IMG/VR virus record: IMGVR_UViG_3300047160_001675
Location: 1-40,531 of that record
Strand: one strand, 5' to 3'
DNA: 40,531 bases
Source: a virus
How positions within the stretch are numbered: the first letter of the stretch is position 1; the number at the start of each line of letters is the position of its first letter. The notes beneath the pieces are model-generated. The model made no database searches, was not told the DNA's origin, and saw only the letters and a program-made list of their open reading frames with translations. The position numbers and the translations under genes were made by a program. Shown here in pieces: positions 1 through 40,531 of the stretch.

Positions 1-97
1 GCATCGAGTACATGATCTTAAGTATTTCCGCTTCTTCTTTATTAGCTTCAAGTAGCCCGTTATCGTCTAGTTGCTGCCCGTATGGCACACGGCCCAC
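1..97. repeat. Terminal direct overlap, copy 1 (identical to 40435..40531). It implies a circular replicon or circular assembly of about 40,434 bp.
   Basis: Base-by-base comparison shows 97/97 identity between the first 97 nt and the last 97 nt of the window. Confidence 0.95.
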
Positions 98-559
98 GCG
101 TTCGCCTCTAGCTTTCTTACGGGCTAGGGCTGCCTTAGTGCGCGTCGAGATCACAAGAGCCTCATACATCGCGAATAGATCCATTATGCCCCTAAGCAAG
201 ATGTTATGGGGCTCGTCGCCCTCCATCTCACCTATTGCAGAAACTAGTTTCGCTTTTTTCTTCTCTATGATACGCTCTATCATACCGATAATGTATGGGT
301 CACGTGCTAAACGTTCCCGCTTATGGACTATTAGCACGTCATCCTTCTTCAGAAGGGAAAGAGCTTCCAGAAGCTTAGGACGCTCCTCTAGCTCCTTCCT
401 TTTTCTATCTGTACCTGTAACAATATCAATGTATTCTTCGATCTGCCGCCCGCCTAGCTTCTTGATCCATTCCATGCAAGCATGACGTTGAGCGTCTAGA
501 CCTAAGCCTGAATCCTCTTGCTTGTCTGTCGAGACCCTAAGGTATATGAAATACCGCAT
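1..559 (-). CDS. Serine recombinase (resolvase/invertase catalytic domain), 5' part. The gene continues across the window junction to 40271.
   Basis: This ORF is not in the supplied track because it runs off the edge. Hand translation from ATG 559..557 gives MRYFIYLRVSTDKQEDSGLGLDAQRHACMEWIKKLGG...ARKKARGERVGRVPYGQQ. YLRVSTDKQ is the catalytic-serine motif of serine recombinases. The frame joins exactly to ORF 40271..40531 once the 97-bp overlap is collapsed, giving 723 nt = 240 aa plus stop. Confidence 0.9.
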   Translation of the reverse strand, partial: MRYFIYLRVSTDKQEDSGLGLDAQRHACMEWIKKLGGRQIEEYIDIVTGTDRKRKELEERPKLLEALSLLKKDDVLIVHKRERLARDPYIIGMIERIIEKKKAKLVSAIGEMEGDEPHNILLRGIMDLFAMYEALVISTRTKAALARKKARGERVGRVPYGQQLDDNGLLEANKEEAEILKIMYSM

Positions 560-792
560 CACTCAACCTTCTTTAACTGGCTAGAGTCGCTAATCATGCA
601 ACATTCTTTCATACGCAATACGGTCTTAACTTCTACCATATCGGTTTCTAAGCGTGTCATTCTATCCTCGATCTTTTCAATTCTCTTAGATAGATTGCTC
701 CACACGAAACCCAAAACGGCGGTTATAAAAGCCGTTTGGAGCCCTATCAACCACATGATTGTCTGGGCAAATCTCCACGTGTTTTCATCCAT
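559..792 (-). CDS. Small membrane-anchored coiled-coil protein (77 aa).
   Basis: The N-terminal segment WLIGLQTAFITAVLGFVW is hydrophobic and is followed by a heptad-like segment. Its TGA stop overlaps the recombinase ATG (TGATG). Confidence 0.55.
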   Translation of the reverse strand: MDENTWRFAQTIMWLIGLQTAFITAVLGFVWSNLSKRIEKIEDRMTRLETDMVEVKTVLRMKECCMISDSSQLKKVE

Positions 793-825
793 AAAATTTT
801 TCCTTTGATTTAATGTGTTGCTTAT

Positions 826-1131
826 CTATTGTTCATGTTGTAACTTTTGGACTGCCTGCTTACATTTAGTTAGCATCCGGGCGCCCACTTCGTCAACGTC
901 GATGATGGCGCGCGTGTCCATTAATCTAAGAAGGTCTGATATGACTACCAGCGACCGCCCTAAGTTGTATTTAATGGTTTCGACGCATTCGCGTTCATCC
1001 GTTTCAAGATACTTAGATTCTAGCGCCTTAGATTGTAGTTCATACGCACCTTTTAAAGATACAGCGTACGACCCCAAAGCGAATATATATTCTTCAAGCG
1101 TTTCAATGCTCTTTGTATCAATGAAATTCAT
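826..1131 (-). CDS. Hypothetical helical protein (101 aa).
   Basis: ORF in the leftward operon. ATGA overlap with the upstream gene. Confidence 0.55.
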   Translation of the reverse strand: MNFIDTKSIETLEEYIFALGSYAVSLKGAYELQSKALESKYLETDERECVETIKYNLGRSLVVISDLLRLMDTRAIIDVDEVGARMLTKCKQAVQKLQHEQ

Positions 1132-1409
1132 CTACAAGCCTCCGGCAGTTCGATTTTTCGCACCTCAATTTCAACAACAAACCCCATAGCACGCATATGC
1201 TCTATCTCAATTTTAGTGAACGTTTTACGCCTCATTAATATAGCAAGTCCATAGGCGAACTTATTGACGGGATAAAATAAAGGTCGCGTCAATACGTCCG
1301 CATATGATACTTTGACCGTCGGCAATCCCTTATCTTCATAGTCAAGGTCGAGACCCTGCCATATCTTCTTGTAATCTTCTTTTGCCTTTTCTAGCTCTTG
1401 CTTGTTCAT
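1128..1409 (-). CDS. Hypothetical protein (93 aa).
   Basis: AAGGGGA Shine-Dalgarno 5 nt upstream of ATG 1409. Sits in the operon. Confidence 0.6.
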   Translation of the reverse strand: MNKQELEKAKEDYKKIWQGLDLDYEDKGLPTVKVSYADVLTRPLFYPVNKFAYGLAILMRRKTFTKIEIEHMRAMGFVVEIEVRKIELPEACR

Positions 1410-2416: not shown

Positions 2417-2632
2417 CTATGAAATGATACGATTGACTAAGTCCCCTTTGCTTGCGTATTTCCTTTGTAAAGCTTTAAGGTCGCATACTACACTACCTAG
2501 CTTGCACCATTGACCAAAAAAGTAAGACTCGTTTTCCGTCCTTCCGGCGCTCTTTTCTTCAAGATAGCGCGATTCAAGCGCTACTAACTCCTTGCGGTAT
2601 TGCTTAATCAACATTCTTAAATCTTCCTTCAT
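2417..2632 (-). CDS. Small hypothetical protein (71 aa) immediately upstream of the HTH gene.
   Basis: AAGGA about 10 nt upstream of the ATG. Sits in the operon. Confidence 0.55.
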   Translation of the reverse strand: MKEDLRMLIKQYRKELVALESRYLEEKSAGRTENESYFFGQWCKLGSVVCDLKALQRKYASKGDLVNRIIS

Positions 2633-2743
2633 AGAGAGTATATCCTTAGATGTGTGTAGTTATGCTTATATTCACTAGCGAACTCTAGAGCCTCGCGCCA
2701 CCCTTTGAAGGTGTAGCGCGATACTTGAGCGTTTAGGGTGTAT

Positions 2744-3097
2744 TCAACTATGCACATAATTCCACCCCCTATAGTGCTGACGGTCGAACGCTTCAATACC
2801 GGCAATCTCTAACACACCATAGAGGCGTTTAGACACACCCGGAAGGCGCGCAATTGATCCGTTAGGGTTAATCCTAAAGCTTCCAGTTTTCTTGCATGGA
2901 CGCGTTTGTAGTAAATCTTTCTTATCTTGAGACCAAGGCCCGGTAAACTCATAGACCGTCCCGGTGATAGCGCCGTCCTTATTTTCTTTCCCTATTTGCA
3001 ATATGTATTTGTAGTTAGAAGAATAGCGGTCAAATTCGTCGAGTTTTTCAACTTGATCTAATACGCAATTAGCGCGTGCACTACATGAATAGCCCAT
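2744..3097 (-). CDS. Hypothetical protein (117 aa).
   Basis: ORF coupled to the upstream gene by TAATG. Ends in TGA. Confidence 0.55.
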   Translation of the reverse strand: MGYSCSARANCVLDQVEKLDEFDRYSSNYKYILQIGKENKDGAITGTVYEFTGPWSQDKKDLLQTRPCKKTGSFRINPNGSIARLPGVSKRLYGVLEIAGIEAFDRQHYRGWNYVHS

Positions 3098-3369
3098 TAT
3101 TCACCCCCTTCAATCAAAACTAGATCATAAAGAGGTTGAAAGTTAGAATCAGCACTTATGCGAATAGTTGTATCGCAAATATCATCACAATACACTAGAT
3201 CTATAGCTTTAGGCTTTAGATAGCCCTCGTCAATCATGCGCTCGATAATTTCGTTATTCTCAAAGCTGGTAGGTATCTCAACAATTCCAGCCTTATGCCA
3301 ATCGTTAGTGTCCCAGCCACCTTCTTCATCTGTAGCCCACGCGTCTATAGCGTATACTTGATATTTCAT
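3097..3369 (-). CDS. Hypothetical acidic protein (90 aa; start moved to the internal ATG).
   Basis: AAGAGG SD 4 nt upstream of ATG 3369 (MKYQVYAIDAW...). The upstream ATG at 3411 has no SD. Confidence 0.55.
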   Translation of the reverse strand: MKYQVYAIDAWATDEEGGWDTNDWHKAGIVEIPTSFENNEIIERMIDEGYLKPKAIDLVYCDDICDTTIRISADSNFQPLYDLVLIEGGE

Positions 3370-6736: not shown

Positions 6737-6808
6737 GGGTTCATGGTGCAGCGGCTAGCATACCTCCCTGTCACGGAGGAGGCGACAGTTCGATTCTGTC
6801 TGATCCCG
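6737..6808 (+). tRNA. tRNA-Asp: tRNA-Asp (anticodon GUC), CCA not encoded.
   Basis: Hand-folded cloverleaf. Acceptor GGGTTCA/TGATCCC has one T.T mismatch. D stem GTGC/GCAT. Anticodon stem CCTCC/GGAGG with loop CTGTCAC. T arm GACAG-TTCGATT-CTGTC. Confidence 0.8.
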
Positions 6809-6810
6809 AC

Positions 6811-6883
6811 GGACTCGTAGCTCAGTCGGTAGAGCAGCGGATTGTTAATCCGCAGCGCGTAGGTTCAAGTCCTGCCGAGTCCT
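6811..6883 (+). tRNA. tRNA-Asn: tRNA-Asn (anticodon GUU), CCA not encoded.
   Basis: Acceptor GGACTCG/CGAGTCC is perfect. D arm GCTC-AGTCGGTA-GAGC. Anticodon stem GCGGA/TCCGC with loop TTGTTAA. T arm GTAGG-TTCAAGT-CCTGC. Confidence 0.9.
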
Positions 6884-6885
6884 AA

Positions 6886-6959
6886 CGTGCCGTAGCTCAA
6901 TAGGTTAGAGCGGCACTCTTATAAGGTGCAGGTCGGTGGTTCAATTCCACCCGGCACGA
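6886..6959 (+). tRNA. tRNA-Ile: tRNA-Ile (anticodon UAU, AUA decoder), CCA not encoded.
   Basis: Acceptor CGTGCCG/CGGCACG is perfect. D arm GCTC-AATAGGTTA-GAGC. Anticodon stem GCACT/GGTGC with loop CTTATAA. T arm GGTGG-TTCAATT-CCACC. Confidence 0.85.
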
Positions 6960-6996: not shown

Positions 6997-7308
6997 ATGT
7001 TCAATAGGAAGAAAGAGAAAGAGAGATTAGAGAGAGAGAAACTTATGCGTTTAGAGTTAAACGCGTTTCACGGTACTGTGAGGGCTGCCGAGAAACAGAG
7101 CCATGAAGCAGTTCAACTTCTTAAGGAGCTTAAGTATAAGATTAATGAAGATATGAGGGAAGAGCTAGATACTACTCAGAGAAAGTATATAGCTCTGTTG
7201 GAAGCAAAACTCATTCAATTCGATCAAGAAGCTGTTAAGATAAAAGCAGAGAAGGACGCTCAATATCAGCGCCTTCATAATTACTTCTATTCAGGTGCTC
7301 GTCCTTAG
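6997..7308 (+). CDS. Coiled-coil protein (103 aa).
   Basis: GAGGT SD. Charged heptad-rich sequence. Confidence 0.6.
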   Translation: MFNRKKEKERLEREKLMRLELNAFHGTVRAAEKQSHEAVQLLKELKYKINEDMREELDTTQRKYIALLEAKLIQFDQEAVKIKAEKDAQYQRLHNYFYSGARP

Positions 7309-7566
7309 CTTATAGAGGTGTTCAATAGCGTCGCATAGAATCTTGGACTTTTCAGGCTTTCCTGAGCGTTTCATCTCTTCTAAGCATAGCTCGTTGAACA
7401 TCTTCCAATGCTCTTCACTTAGGTACATTGTCACCTTAACCTTTTCCTGTTTAGGTGTGTTTACTTCTTGCGGTTTTGATGTATCTACGTTTTGCGGTAT
7501 TGCCTCGTAGTCCATTAACTTCATCTTCTTTTTGATGCTTTCTTTAGCTTGTTCTATACTCGACAT
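7291..7566 (-). CDS. Small ParA partner, probable ribbon-helix-helix centromere-binding protein (ParG/CopG-like, 91 aa).
   Basis: It sits directly downstream of parA and overlaps it by 13 nt. GGAGGAAG SD. The C-terminal KVKVTMYLSEEHWKMFNELCLEEMKRSGKPEKSKILCDAIEHL has a beta-strand plus two-helix RHH pattern. Confidence 0.45.
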   Translation of the reverse strand: MSSIEQAKESIKKKMKLMDYEAIPQNVDTSKPQEVNTPKQEKVKVTMYLSEEHWKMFNELCLEEMKRSGKPEKSKILCDAIEHLYKLRTST

Positions 7567-8896: not shown

Positions 8897-10075
8897 TTAA
8901 TCCTTATATGGGTCTATTTCGTTTTCTGAGGCCATACAAACGCCTATCGGCTTAAGTCGGTGTATTGCCTTGACCGTCTCGCGATGTGCGAATAGAACTT
9001 GTTCTATGCGTTTATAGCAATGCGGGGATTCATCCACACCAGCCCCCCGGAGTTCGACATCGAAACGTTTAACCCAATCTTCCATGTCGTTCTGGGATAC
9101 CAACCCAGCTCTAATAATTTCGCCTGTCTTACGATTACGCTTTCCTTTAGCCTGGGCGCGACCCATAATCCGGCCGGCGCCGTGGATGGTCGAATACATA
9201 GAATCTTTGGATTCGTCGCTATCCACTCCTTCAAGGATGAATGAGTAATCACCCATAGACCCGCCAACAAAGCTTTTTTCGCCGGGAAAATTAGGCGTTG
9301 CGCCCTTTCTAACGACCCATAAGTCTTTCCCAAAATGAGACTCCCTCCATGCAAAATTATGGTGATTGTGTACTTCTTCCAGAATGTCGGCTCGTAGTAT
9401 CTGCGCAACACGCGCACACACCCAATCACGCCCTGCGTAAGCGTACCTACCAGCCATTTCCATACATTTGAGGTACTGTTCTCCGAGGTCGGAAGTTTCG
9501 TCCAAGACAACTGGTTTTGCGTGAATACCATCCTTCCCCCCCGCTTTTTCTATAAAATGTGTGGCTATGGAGTGTCCCAATCCGCGGCTCCCAAAATGTA
9601 CCCCAATCCACACGCGATCAAGATCGTCAACAAAAATATCAACATAATGGTTACCGGAACCAACAGTGCCAAGCTGCTCAATAGCTTTAGACCTAAGATT
9701 CCTAAGCAAATCAAGCTCAGTCCATAAAGGATCATCAAAAAGATTGTGCTCGACTCGTTCATTATTTTTCCTCCCTACTCCGAAGCTGATGTGCTTCTGG
9801 ACTTCGTTCATACTTCGATAGATGTTAGCCCGTACTTGATTAGAATCAGCGTTAACCCGTACAGCCTTATTGCCACATGCAATGTCAAAGCCAACGCCAT
9901 TAACACAGATACGCCCTTCATAAGCGATAACGCCACCAATAGGCACGCTATATCCAATATGGTGATCAGCCATAAGGGCTCCGCAATAAGCTTCATGCTT
10001 CAAGGCCTCCTGCATTTGTAGAATTGTTTCGGCGTCAGGGTCACCCCATACCGGAAGATTATTTAGTCTTTGCAT
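8897..10075 (-). CDS. rtcB: RtcB-family RNA ligase (3'-phosphate/2',3'-cyclic phosphate to 5'-OH ligase).
   Basis: The expected motifs are present: MADHHIGYSVPIGGV, GFDIACGN, GSGNHYVDIF, HFGSRGLGH, HNHHNFAW, GSMGDYSFIL, HGAGR and PHCYKRI. I place the start at ATG 10075 (MQRLNNLPVWG, AAGGAG upstream). The ORF also stays open back to 10126. Confidence 0.9.
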   Translation of the reverse strand: MQRLNNLPVWGDPDAETILQMQEALKHEAYCGALMADHHIGYSVPIGGVIAYEGRICVNGVGFDIACGNKAVRVNADSNQVRANIYRSMNEVQKHISFGVGRKNNERVEHNLFDDPLWTELDLLRNLRSKAIEQLGTVGSGNHYVDIFVDDLDRVWIGVHFGSRGLGHSIATHFIEKAGGKDGIHAKPVVLDETSDLGEQYLKCMEMAGRYAYAGRDWVCARVAQILRADILEEVHNHHNFAWRESHFGKDLWVVRKGATPNFPGEKSFVGGSMGDYSFILEGVDSDESKDSMYSTIHGAGRIMGRAQAKGKRNRKTGEIIRAGLVSQNDMEDWVKRFDVELRGAGVDESPHCYKRIEQVLFAHRETVKAIHRLKPIGVCMASENEIDPYKD

Positions 10076-10268
10076 CTTTCTTCCACTCCTTAGCCAATTC
10101 AGGCTTGCAGATAACGAAAGTTGCATCTAACTCTTTAGCCCATTGCATATCTACTTTCCAATGTTCGTGGCAATACTTCTTAACAAGATTTTGGAACTCC
10201 TTCAAAGGTACGGCTCCCCTGAATACAACATAACCCTCGTCATGTATCTCTAAGCACCATGTAGACAT
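10059..10268 (-). CDS. Small hypothetical protein (69 aa), first gene of the rtcB-parA operon.
   Basis: AGGAGG SD upstream of ATG 10268 (MSTWCLEIHDEG...). It overlaps the rtcB start by 17 nt. Confidence 0.55.
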   Translation of the reverse strand: MSTWCLEIHDEGYVVFRGAVPLKEFQNLVKKYCHEHWKVDMQWAKELDATFVICKPELAKEWKKDAKTK

Positions 10269-38210: not shown

Positions 38211-38414
38211 ATGAAAGTTGGATTTACGGGACTTTTGTTCCTATTGTTTTTAGGCCTTAAACTGGGCGGTGTGATCGCGTGGTCATGGGTATGGGTAACC
38301 GCACCTCTATGGATTCCTATTGCATTAGCGGGCCTTTTTATAGCCTTCTTGGGTATTTGTGTTCTCTTTAAGGTCTTGCAAACATTTGGAGGGCCGAATG
38401 TCAAAAAAGCCTAA
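38211..38414 (+). CDS. Small membrane protein with 2-3 TM segments (67 aa; possibly a holin).
   Basis: Hydrophobic stretches LLFLLFLGLKLGGVIAWSWVWV and LWIPIALAGLFIAFLGICVLF with a basic C-terminus. Confidence 0.55.
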   Translation: MKVGFTGLLFLLFLGLKLGGVIAWSWVWVTAPLWIPIALAGLFIAFLGICVLFKVLQTFGGPNVKKA

Positions 38415-38592
38415 GACTCCATACGAGGAGTTAAAAGAATATATTGATGACTACATAAACTTTATGGAGAAGATCAATAAAAAGCGTATGGCAGCAGCCG
38501 AGAAAGAGCTTGAACACACTATCCAAGAGGGTAGAGCGTTCAACCTTTTACGTCAAAATATAACCAATTTGGAGGCTCATGGAGTATCCTAA
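38398..38592 (+). CDS. Hypothetical coiled-coil protein (64 aa; start moved to the internal ATG).
   Basis: GGAGGG SD upstream of ATG 38398. Confidence 0.55.
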   Translation: MSKKPKTPYEELKEYIDDYINFMEKINKKRMAAAEKELEHTIQEGRAFNLLRQNITNLEAHGVS

Positions 38593-39287
38593 AATAAACT
38601 CTCTATGGAAAAGACACGGATGGTACTTCGACGAAAAGGAGAAGAAGGAGTGTCTTTGACGCTTCACGCCAAAAGCTTCGACAGTCTTTCATCGAGGGGG
38701 ACTATGCTTGCCCAGAGTTCGGTTCCATAAATAGATGGATGATCGACGAAAAAGTTGACGGCACTAATGTGCGGATTTTTTGGGAGCCAGCAGACCAGTT
38801 TTCCCCGAACTACGGAGGCAGGACAGATAACGCACAAATGCCAACCTCTCTCCTTCAACACTTGCAACATACTTTTACCCGCGAAAAGCTTCAAAAGCAG
38901 TTTCCTGATGCACGGAAGGTCATTCTTTTCGGCGAAGGGTACGGCCCAAAGATCCAAGCCTGTGGAGGTAGGTATCGTAAAGACGTGTCCTTCATCCTCT
39001 TCGACGTCTGGATCGACGGATGGTGGCTCGAAAAGGAAAGTGTATTGGAGATCGCCTCGGCACTTGATATTGAACACACCATTAATCAAAAGATTATGAC
39101 AACCGCTGAGGTTGTTGAATTCGTAAAATCTAAGCCCAAGAGTTACATCGCGGAAGATAGGGAGCTGATCATGGAGGGGGTAATAGCGCGAAGCGTCCCG
39201 CTTATGCTCTTCAGAAATCACAAAACTCCTATCATGTTCAAACTTAAAGTTAGAGACTTCCCAGATATTAGCGAGGTCGAAGCTTAA
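38579..39287 (+). CDS. ATP-dependent RNA ligase (Rnl2/PF09414-like), assembled as join(38579..38656, 38658..39287). It needs a +1 frameshift at CUU-UGA and would give 235 aa.
   Basis: Motif I is EKVDGTN, with the lysine codon at 38751. Motif III-like is ILFGEGYG, motif IV-like is FILFDVW, and motif V-like is EGVIARS...FKLK. The N-terminal MEYPKINSLWKR resembles T4 Rnl2 MFKKYSSLENHY and lies in the -1 frame relative to the body. The body frame has no start codon or SD upstream of motif I. Confidence 0.65.
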
Positions 39288-39748
39288 TGATCAAGTTAAT
39301 ACTGCCGGGAGATCCTGTAGCTCAAGCGCGAATTAGAGTATTCAAGAGGGGGAATAGGGTTATGACCTTTGACCCACAAACAGCTTTAAAGAGGGATTTG
39401 AAGATCAAAGTCGCGGATGATCTGCAAAAACTCGACTGAAAGCAACCGGAATACCCGCGCGTGATGTTCTGGTTCTACATGCCCATACCCAAAAGCATGT
39501 CGAAAAGGGATCGTGTAGACGCTAATAAAGGGTTCCTGAAGCACGTTAAGAAGCCTGATGTTGATAATCTTATCAAGTTATATCTCGACGTGCTGTCAGG
39601 GATTGTGATTAAAGATGACAATAGTGTGGCTATAGGTAGCGCTATCAAGGTTTATTCTTGTAAGCCCCGGGTGGAGATTTACATAGAGGAGACCCAAAAG
39701 AATGTAACAATGAATGAGGTATGGGAGGGTACATGGTCGACGCAGTAG
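39287..39748 (+). CDS. rusA: RusA-family Holliday-junction resolvase interrupted by an in-frame TGA at 39437..39439 (50 codons, TGA, 102 codons).
   Basis: The N-terminal part MIKLILPGDPVAQARIRV and the C-terminal part FWFYMPIPKSMSKRDR...KKPDVDNLIKLYLDVLSGIVIKDDNSV (PDxDN and DD motifs) are in one frame. The upstream part is TAATG-coupled to the ligase gene. Confidence 0.65.
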
Positions 39749-40323
39749 AAGAAGCATTAAATCAAATACAAGATAGATTATATGATAATATCATTGGCGG
39801 TGAGTTTAATAGCTTTATTAGTAATATGTCTTCATCAACTAAAGAGCGAATGGTTAAAGACAATATTATAGGACAAACTAGAGAGTTCTTTAATAAATTA
39901 AATAGTGAGTTTGAAGATATCCGTTTTATGTATTTTTGGGGTATGGGGCCATGCCTTTTAAACTCTGAGATGCACCGGGTATATACTGATCGGTATAACG
40001 AAGATTATGCCGAAGATAGCTATAACGATTTCGATGCAATGTACGACCGCGAAGGGGATACTGAATATTTTTATCAGACTCCGCTTACGGAAATTACAAT
40101 TAGAGTTGAATATTACTGGGAGAGAGTTTGTTCTTTAGGTTGCAGGCATAGAACTAAACGTTTCTATCTATTTAATATTCCTAAACTATTAGATTTCATT
40201 GGTTATTTAAAGGTAGGTATGCCGGTAAGAACTTTTGTTAAAGAGTTCATACCGGACTTCTTTTACGATCCTACAATCGCCCCTGTAAAGCGAGGACGCC
40301 CGAAAAAAGCTTCTCATAATTAA
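39733..40323 (+). CDS. Hypothetical protein (196 aa) with a C-terminal AT-hook-like KRGRPKK.
   Basis: GGAGGG upstream of ATG 39733 (alternative ATG at 39721). The 3' end overlaps the convergent recombinase gene by 53 nt. Confidence 0.55.
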   Translation: MVDAVEEALNQIQDRLYDNIIGGEFNSFISNMSSSTKERMVKDNIIGQTREFFNKLNSEFEDIRFMYFWGMGPCLLNSEMHRVYTDRYNEDYAEDSYNDFDAMYDREGDTEYFYQTPLTEITIRVEYYWERVCSLGCRHRTKRFYLFNIPKLLDFIGYLKVGMPVRTFVKEFIPDFFYDPTIAPVKRGRPKKASHN

Positions 40324-40531
40324 TATATACTCGAGAGGTGGCGCCATGCGTCCATATACCGCCATCTCTATTTCGATAGCCCATATCGTTTAACTGATCC
40401 GCAATAGTCCTAAAGGTCATTCCTTTATGCTTCCGCATCGAGTACATGATCTTAAGTATTTCCGCTTCTTCTTTATTAGCTTCAAGTAGCCCGTTATCGT
40501 CTAGTTGCTGCCCGTATGGCACACGGCCCAC
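40271..40531 (-). CDS. Serine recombinase, 3' part (recombinase/HTH-like DNA-binding region).
   Basis: GRVPYGQQLDDNGLLEANKEEAEILKIMYSMRKHKGMTFRTIADQLNDMGYRNRDGGIWT resembles the PYGY...IA..LN..G...W 'recombinase' domain of serine integrases. The protein stops at 240 aa with no zinc-ribbon or coiled-coil extension. Confidence 0.85.
   Translation of the reverse strand: MGRVPYGQQLDDNGLLEANKEEAEILKIMYSMRKHKGMTFRTIADQLNDMGYRNRDGGIWTHGATSRVYINYEKLFSGVLALQGRL
40435..40531. repeat. Terminal direct overlap, copy 2.
   Basis: Identical to 1..97. Confidence 0.95.

Follow-up and report, generated by a model that had tools for sequence, protein, structure and literature searches.

A putative prfB-type +1 frameshift cassette in an RNA ligase gene of uncultivated phages

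Introduction

The frameshift cassette of the release factor 2 (RF2) gene, prfB, is the textbook bacterial +1 recoding signal and is described as an autoregulatory device specific to that gene. Here we analyse a 16-nucleotide (nt) cassette of closely similar design, AAGGAG-UGU-CUU-UGA-C, at positions 38645-38660 of a 40,531-nt viral genome (IMG/VR record IMGVR_UViG_3300047160_001675, analysed at full length and hereafter called the window), where it separates a short open reading frame from the body of a predicted phage RNA ligase. In prfB, the elements that matter are the shift codon CUU, the stop codon UGA, the C 3' of it and a Shine–Dalgarno (SD) sequence 3 nt upstream, a spacing required for stimulation of the +1 shift (PMC5009743). 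From comparison of the window with its relatives, we consider it probable that an obligatory, SD-stimulated +1 ribosomal frameshift of the prfB type at CUU_UGA_C makes the ligase.

Two other described systems lie close to this one. The tsh gene of Listeria phages PSA, A118 and A500 undergoes 'shifty stop' +1 frameshifting at CCC_UGA (PMC5009743). As in the ligase gene, the shift takes place in a phage gene on the codon 5' of a UGA stop, but the Listeria site has CCC as its P-site codon, with no SD stimulator described at 3 nt, and the product is a C-terminal extension on a minority of a structural protein, whereas the ligase shift would be obligatory for the whole enzyme. The second system comprises TGA-recoded (code 4) phages and their TGA-depleted relatives with the standard code (Borges et al., bioRxiv 10.1101/2021.08.26.457843). 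In the searchable open-access literature we found no CUU_UGA or RF2-type cassette in phage or ligase genes, nor any account of the RF2 cassette in a gene other than prfB, and no paper there contradicts the claim of novelty made for this cassette in a preliminary description of the same DNA.

Results

A prfB-like cassette between two frames of a ligase gene

All features of the ligase locus lie on the plus strand. Translation would begin at ATG 38579, behind an initiation SD (GGAGG, 38571..38575) that is present as GGAGG or GGAGA in 14 of 14 members of the cassette-bearing clade defined below. The first open reading frame (ORF1, frame 0) consists of 26 sense codons (38579..38656; MEYPKINSLWKRHGWYFDEKEKKECL) that form the ligase N-terminus, and it runs into a UGA at 38657-38659 that is followed by C (38657..38660). 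Immediately before this stop lie an internal SD-like AAGGAG (38645..38650), which is a 6-nt complement of the 16S anti-SD (CUCCUU) and ends 3 nt before the shift codon; a spacer or E-site codon, UGU (Cys; 38651..38653); and the candidate slippery P-site codon CUU (Leu; 38654..38656), which forms a TTT run with the next base and could re-pair on UUU after a +1 slip. U38657 would be the skipped base and GAC (Asp; 38658-38660) the first codon read in the +1 frame.

That frame is open from 38598 and holds the remainder of the ligase (38658..39287; 209 codons plus TAA): a 27-codon linker free of start codons, DASRQKLRQSFIEGDYACPEFGSINRW, and then the body from Met 38739. This ATG, which has no SD, is the earliest ATG, GTG or TTG in the frame, and it stands four codons before the catalytic lysine codon of motif I (EKVDGTN; 38751..38753). 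Fusion at CUU|GAC gives a protein of 26 + 209 = 235 amino acids (aa) with the junction ...KKECL-DASRQ.... The motif GGAGNNNCTTTGAC occurs once in the window, against 0.02 occurrences expected from shuffles. Direct reading bore out everything that the preliminary description had stated about the sequence itself, namely the SD, the ATG, the cassette, the frames and the positions of motif I.

The locus shares with Escherichia coli prfB (AGGGGG-UAU-CUU-UGA-C, UGA at codon 26) a short 5' reading frame closed by an in-frame UGA, a +1 frame that encodes most of the protein, CUU directly 5' of the UGA and C directly 3' of it. The two cassettes are also alike in having an SD-like hexamer exactly 3 nt upstream of the shift codon, GAC as the first +1 codon, a Leu-Asp junction and conservation at the level of nucleotides. 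They differ in the SD itself (AAGGAG), in the spacer (UGU) and in a second SD-like motif upstream in some members of the phage clade, and the phage group with the ligase cassette also decodes some UGA codons as Trp. The main departure from prfB lies in the product, which is an RNA ligase of the PF09414 family and not RF2, so that no autoregulatory loop is closed; at most, the cassette could report on UGA decoding in an open loop. Among the window proteins scanned, none was recognised as a release factor.

The interruption recurs across independent datasets

A homologue search with the fused protein returned about 1,900 relatives. DNA was then collected with the ligase body as the query; the cassette lies outside this query, so the sampling is unbiased with respect to it. 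We obtained 14 distinct cassette-bearing sequences (the window, L001-L004, L106-L108, L111, L114, L186, L187, L197 and L200) from at least 13 metagenome datasets in IMG/VR, JGI, ENA and Logan assemblies, one of which (L187) is identical in ten Logan runs. In 13 of 13 sequences with a complete gene ORF1 has exactly 26 codons, and the +1 part, of 205-212 codons, is free of stops. The closest relatives had been called either as shortened ORFs of 182 aa (P0009, P0011, P0013 and P0016 among many relatives) or in the +1 frame (..KRRRRSVFD..), both of which are signs of the same interruption. Against cultured phages, a blastn search with 38300-39800 found no match, and relatives there appear at the protein level only.

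The extra base lies in a TTT run, as a sequencing or assembly error would, and the frame might alternatively be restored in the RNA by transcriptional slippage. We regard either explanation as extremely improbable. All 14 distinct sequences, from different assemblers and projects, share the TTT run and the interruption, and this recurrence in independent assemblies answers the question of a homopolymer error, if indirectly, in the negative; in addition, the remaining genes of the circular 40.4-kb genome are intact. A run of three T is far shorter than RNA polymerase slippage needs, which makes the transcriptional version implausible.

Selection changes frame at the cassette

To locate the frame switch, we compared the ratio of non-synonymous to synonymous differences per site (pN/pS; Nei–Gojobori counts over all pairs of clade sequences) in the three frames. 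Across ORF1 codons 2-22 the ratio was 0.07 in frame 0 and 2.5 and 3.5 in the other two frames. In the 27-codon linker after GAC it was 0.15 in the +1 frame and 1.6 and 2.6 elsewhere, and the ligase body likewise gave 0.15 in the +1 frame. Selection on frame 0 up to codon 22 and on the +1 frame after GAC places the switch within the last five ORF1 codons. Synonymous divergence is near saturation (pS 0.56-0.74), which indicates that the gene has long remained functional despite its interruption.

Against this background of divergence the cassette stands out. Outside it, only 5 of 55 degenerate third positions are invariant among the 14 sequences (91% vary), whereas within the cassette AAG, TGT, CTT and GAC each keep their third base throughout, and no unvarying stretch is longer than TGTCTTTGAC. 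TGT is kept in 14 of 14 although TGC is synonymous, CTT in 14 of 14 although Leu has six codons, and TGAC in 14 of 14 although GAT would serve equally for Asp. Variation is limited to AAG>AAA in the first Lys codon and to GAG>GAA in L186, so that the AAGGAG hexamer is intact in 13 of 14 sequences. The arrangement SD-3nt-CUU-UGA-C, whose conservation in homologues had been put forward as a check on the original proposal, is thus retained across the aligned members of the clade (with AAGGAA in L186). Frame-specific selection, the conserved cassette nucleotides and the matched junction described below together uphold its central claim that a prfB-type +1 cassette joins the 26-codon ORF1 to the ligase body. 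At the level of aligned sequences, these comparisons establish that the frame changes, that it does so within 38645-38660, and that the nucleotides of the cassette are under selection. The slippage mechanism itself we infer from the prfB precedent.

A candidate 3' RNA stimulator was examined and set aside. In the interval 38641-38693, RNAalifold predicts pairing between the cassette (GAAGAAGGAGUGUCU) and the RQSF codons that follow it (AGACAGUCNUUC), but all of the pairs are invariant, with no covariation, and the 5' arm would lie inside the ribosome, so the structure is unsupported.

The same data bear on whether the gene is split or decaying, that is, either a pseudogene or a separate 26-aa peptide followed by a 182-aa ligase initiated at Met 38739. 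Gene callers annotate the 182-aa ORF in many relatives, as noted above. However, the linker before Met 38739 is free of start codons and evolves under purifying selection when read in the +1 frame, this Met is replaced by Leu in L200, and 13 ligase bodies remain without stops or indels despite saturated synonymous change; the N-terminal 53 residues are moreover conserved across the family and in annotated ligases. The selection data exclude a pseudogene, and we consider a split gene as a whole very improbable.

Unshifted relatives fix the junction

Two metagenome contigs from NCBI (L198/L199) encode a ligase whose body is 82% identical and which has no frameshift. They read KK-T-TGA(W)-L-E-P-S-K-Q, the same length as KK-E-C-L|D-P-S-R-Q in the clade, and a Leu|Asp junction with one base skipped fits this alignment. 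L198/L199 have none of the cassette features (AAAACA TGA CTG GAA); their differing at every one of them indicates that the cassette nucleotides drift where the shift is not needed. Uninterrupted homologues read ...YFDEKEKK followed, after a three-position gap, by DSSKQEFRQSFIEGDYACPEF.... The in-frame TGA of L198/L199 is no isolated case: unshifted ligases of sister lineages carry TGA at Trp positions in L005, L007, L110, L113, L198/L199, L201, L202 and L203, in the contexts SL-TGA-KR, INx-TGA-MIDEK and KKT-TGA-LE.

These relatives also bring out the possibility that a T became fixed by insertion into CTT-GAC within a Lys/Glu-rich, SD-like stretch, and that the shift is 'corrective', with no regulatory role. 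Such frameshifting is a recognised class (PMC5009743), L198/L199 share the linker length minus one base, and the AAGGAG hexamer arises in part as a by-product of coding for EKEKKE. Yet loss of a T from TTT is easy and no clade member has reverted at a pS of 0.56-0.74, and independently, sister lineages have UGA codons in frame in both the ligase gene and the RusA gene downstream, which points to selection for UGA-dependence itself. Nor is the direction of change fixed, since the neighbour-joining tree of ligase bodies is poorly resolved and the unshifted L198 could be ancestral or a revertant. We find a purely corrective origin doubtful, though worth serious consideration.

The fused product is a predicted RNA ligase

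The fused 235-aa product matches the Pfam family RNA_ligase (PF09414, E 7e-15), and K58, D60 and G61 are invariant in a 34-sequence alignment. The segment encoded by ORF1 aligns to the N-termini of uninterrupted homologues, and the alignment with annotated RNA ligases from crAss-like and Streptomyces phages covers residues 1-233. ORF1 is, on these alignments, part of the ligase enzyme. The junction falls in a linker of variable length and low model confidence, which explains why the three-residue insertion (ECL) is tolerated there.

An AlphaFold2 model of the ligase reached a predicted local distance difference test (pLDDT) score of 81.5. Its best folds in the PDB were T4 Rnl2, REL1 and NgrRnl, and the leading Foldseek hits were 2hvr and 1s68 (T4 Rnl2; E 1e-8), 1xdn and 6vt4. 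A profile search gave Pab1020 (E 4e-4); a single-sequence search against solved structures and NCBIfam found no match. The likeness to T4 Rnl2 proposed in the preliminary description holds at the level of fold, where Rnl2 is the top PDB match; at the level of sequence the nearest solved structure is Pab1020. With the ATP-dependent RNA ligases T4 Rnl2, Naegleria NgrRnl (Rnl5) and Pab1020 (Rnl3) the phage protein shares motif I (KxDG), the PF09414 family and the adenylyltransferase fold. It differs from them in being a stand-alone nucleotidyltransferase domain of 235 aa with no N- or C-terminal accessory domain, and its identity to solved structures is at most about 18%. By sequence and model, then, the window gene is an Rnl2/Rnl5-like adenylyltransferase and a predicted RNA ligase; its genomic context, with an RtcB gene and a tRNA cluster, is only suggestive of RNA joining.

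In one cassette-bearing homologue, P0012 (381 aa), an inserted segment of about 150 aa separates the FDV motif from the WIDG motif; it may represent a mobile element or an intein-like insertion, or result from mis-assembly.

The same 16-mer in release-factor-like phage genes

An exact scan of IMG/VR for the 16-mer found 13 contigs, of which four belong to the ligase clade and two carry release-factor-like genes (L289 and L298/L299). In both of the latter (L289, around 1893-1908; L298/L299, with L299 at 2501-3167) the identical 16-mer, AAGGAGTGTCTTTGAC, encodes the K-E-C-L|D junction. The genes are very divergent, phage-borne, class-I release-factor-like (PrfH-like) genes that need a +1 shift at codon 34; domain 1 is absent from their products, which comprise the C-terminal half of PCRF, the RF-1 domain and the GGQ motif. 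On this evidence, which is independent of the ligase, AAGGAG-UGU-CUU-UGA-C would be in use as a shift site in a family for which the mechanism is established.

Further release-factor-like +1 sites occur in L300-L302, L305, L307 and L311, as variants of xGGAG-NNN-CTT-TGA-N such as CTGGAG-CGC-CTT-TGA-C. The L300 site differs from the 16-mer only in the base after TGA (G), and the UGU spacer is common to the shift sites of L289, L299 and L300. About 15 release-factor-like relatives (in the set to L322) have an in-frame TGA at the same position instead of the cassette, so that one position is occupied by a +1 cassette in some relatives and by an in-frame UGA in others, as in the ligase family. Unlike the ligase, these genes belong to a different family, place the shift inside the PCRF domain and not in an N-terminal linker, and are known here from computation only. 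No description of shift sites at codon 34 was found in the prfH literature, and within 2.5 kb of the release-factor-like genes there is no RtcB or ligase gene.

RusA and in-frame UGA codons in the phage group

Downstream of the ligase lies a RusA resolvase gene (39287..39748, plus strand) whose start overlaps the ligase stop (TAATG) and whose codon 51 is an in-frame TGA at a Trp position (39437-39439). The Pfam RusA match spans both halves around this codon. Of 40 loci, 36 have TGA as codon 51, amid 17 distinct flanking contexts and always followed by A or G; TGG is found there only in the distant L112 and L204/205. From this pattern, codon 51 looks like a programmed site of UGA read-through or Trp recoding, and RusA is probably part of the same UGA-dependent expression unit as the ligase. 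In L007 all four RusA Trp codons are TGA, and the helicase gene has seven TGG and no TGA. More broadly, at least one in-frame TGA occurs in 0 of 11 helicase loci and in 7 of 89 RtcB loci, the concentration being in RusA and the ligase, and the window as a whole has 172 TGG codons and one in-frame TGA. On this distribution the ligase-RusA pair looks specifically dependent on non-termination at UGA.

TGA also serves as a stop, if a depleted one. About 3 of 57 window genes end in it: orf93 (1409..1128, minus strand), 2744..3097 (minus) and 7291..7566 (minus). In orf93 the TGA lies in an ATGA overlap with the next gene, and homologues stop at the same residue with TAA, which marks TGA as a true stop codon in this genome; in L007 and L110 the resolvase gene likewise ends in TGA. 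A tRNA with anticodon UCA was sought without success in the complete genome of the window, whose only tRNAs are tRNA-Asp, tRNA-Asn and tRNA-Ile(UAU), and in the tRNA regions of 48 relatives. A global code 4 (TGA = Trp) was rejected: in-frame TGA codons do stand at Trp sites, yet TGA is also a stop and no tRNA(UCA) is present. L211 encodes a tRNA-Trp(CCA), whose D-arm we inspected for features of a Hirsh-type UGA suppressor, without a clear outcome. In the relatives' tRNA regions ARAGORN also reports a UUA anticodon (ochre-suppressor-like) and four-base anticodons (cgtt, gtcc and caat), these unusual tRNAs being at L215 7761-7970, L225 12834-12917, L256 7775-7851 and L211 3017-3090.

The group resembles the TGA-recoded phages in having TGA at Trp codons in a subset of genes, TGA use that differs among relatives, and few TGA stops, and the idea of recoding as a timer for particular genes is common to both. 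It differs from them in that the genes affected are the ligase-RusA pair and not those for lysis or structure, TGA keeps its role as a stop, the search for a suppressor tRNA found none, and one clade has a frameshift cassette in place of the in-frame TGA. The sources differ as well: soil, rhizosphere and groundwater by sample names for the ligase group, the gut for the TGA-recoded phages.

These codons raise the question of what competes with slippage in the A site. The shift could proceed just as in the prfB-type scheme, with UGA acting as a rare, slowly read Trp codon (a 'hungry' codon, of the Ty1 CUU_AGG_C type), in which case the yield of ligase would report the capacity of UGA-decoding tRNA. 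TGA at the conserved Trp of RusA and in sister ligases, the four TGA codons of the L007 RusA gene, and the depletion of TGA stops, as Borges et al. describe for relatives of TGA-recoded phages, all speak for this version. The genuine TGA stops (orf93 and the L007 and L110 resolvases), the missing UCA-anticodon tRNA, the preponderance of TGG in the window and the invariant C after UGA, which is a weak-termination context, speak against it, and we judge it unlikely.

Genome context

The window carries a 97-nt direct terminal repeat (1-97 and 40435-40531) and so represents a complete circular genome of 40,434 unique bases. A serine recombinase (resolvase) gene spans the genome junction and is intact once the sequence is circularised. 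Its apparent fragmentation, which might have suggested further frameshifts at the window ends, is an artefact of the 97-nt terminal duplication, and the plus-strand ORFs 12..485, 518..808 and 815..1189 are antisense artefacts of the resolvase and terminal region.

Elsewhere in the genome are a tRNA cluster (Asp-GUC, Asn-GUU and Ile-UAU; 6737-6959) and an RtcB ligase gene (8897-10126, minus strand; Pfam E 5e-67). Together with the Rnl-type ligase they form an RNA-repair kit that suggests defence against host anticodon nucleases. A contig scan for the host found relatives of at most 53% identity only, in contigs of metagenome-assembled genomes that are probably mis-binned. The nearest terminases, at about 43%, are from proteobacterial phages and give only a weak hint of the host.

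Discussion

On the prfB-type reading that we favour, ribosomes initiating at ATG 38579 would shift +1 at CUU_UGA_C as the sole route to the RNA ligase. With peptidyl-tRNA-Leu on CUU in the P site and a slowly decoded UGA in the A site, AAGGAG 3 nt upstream would pair with the anti-SD of the translating ribosome; the tRNA would then re-pair on UUU, U38657 would be skipped and GAC (Asp) would be read next. Failure to shift would yield a peptide of 26 aa, extended slightly where UGA is decoded as Trp. The yield of ligase, and probably also of the translationally coupled RusA, would be set by the speed of UGA decoding in the infected cell.

Several observations count against this reading or against the part that it gives to RF2. 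The hexamer of L186, AAGGAA, is weaker than AAGGAG. A second AAGGAG or AAGGAA lies 9 nt upstream in the window, L001, L004 and L187 (mostly AAAGAG in others) and would depart from the prfB rule of a non-pairing sequence before the SD. The N-terminal 40 residues of the structural model have a pLDDT of only about 60. Finally, UGA in this phage group is, from its distribution in the genes, both a genuine stop and a conserved in-frame Trp codon, and the in-frame Trp UGAs permit the hungry-codon variant, in which slow Trp decoding may be the A-site competitor. That RF2 is this competitor is favoured by the invariant C after UGA and by the genuine TGA stops. It is accordingly plausible but unproven that a shortage of RF2-mediated termination at UGA raises ligase output.

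A broader proposal, which we offer only tentatively, is that several interchangeable devices (the +1 shift and the in-frame Trp UGAs) tie the ligase-RusA operon to failed termination at UGA, with RF2 activity as a timer or stress sensor. A drop in RF2 activity might come late in infection, from a phage factor yet to be recognised, or because ribosome rescue following RNA damage titrates RF2, and the release-factor-like phage genes would use the same logic of UGA-dependence and the same 16-mer.

For annotation, these findings mean that gene callers shorten the ligase to 182 aa and split RusA in two. The RusA UGA, the UGAs of sister ligases and the release-factor-like cassettes provide a compact test system for stop-codon control in phages, and bear on a mechanistic question of stop-codon use that recoded phages have raised and that is still open. 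If the frameshift is real, such a natural, conserved copy in a phage enzyme gene unrelated to prfB would show that the RF2 cassette is a portable module capable of linking any gene to the decoding of UGA.

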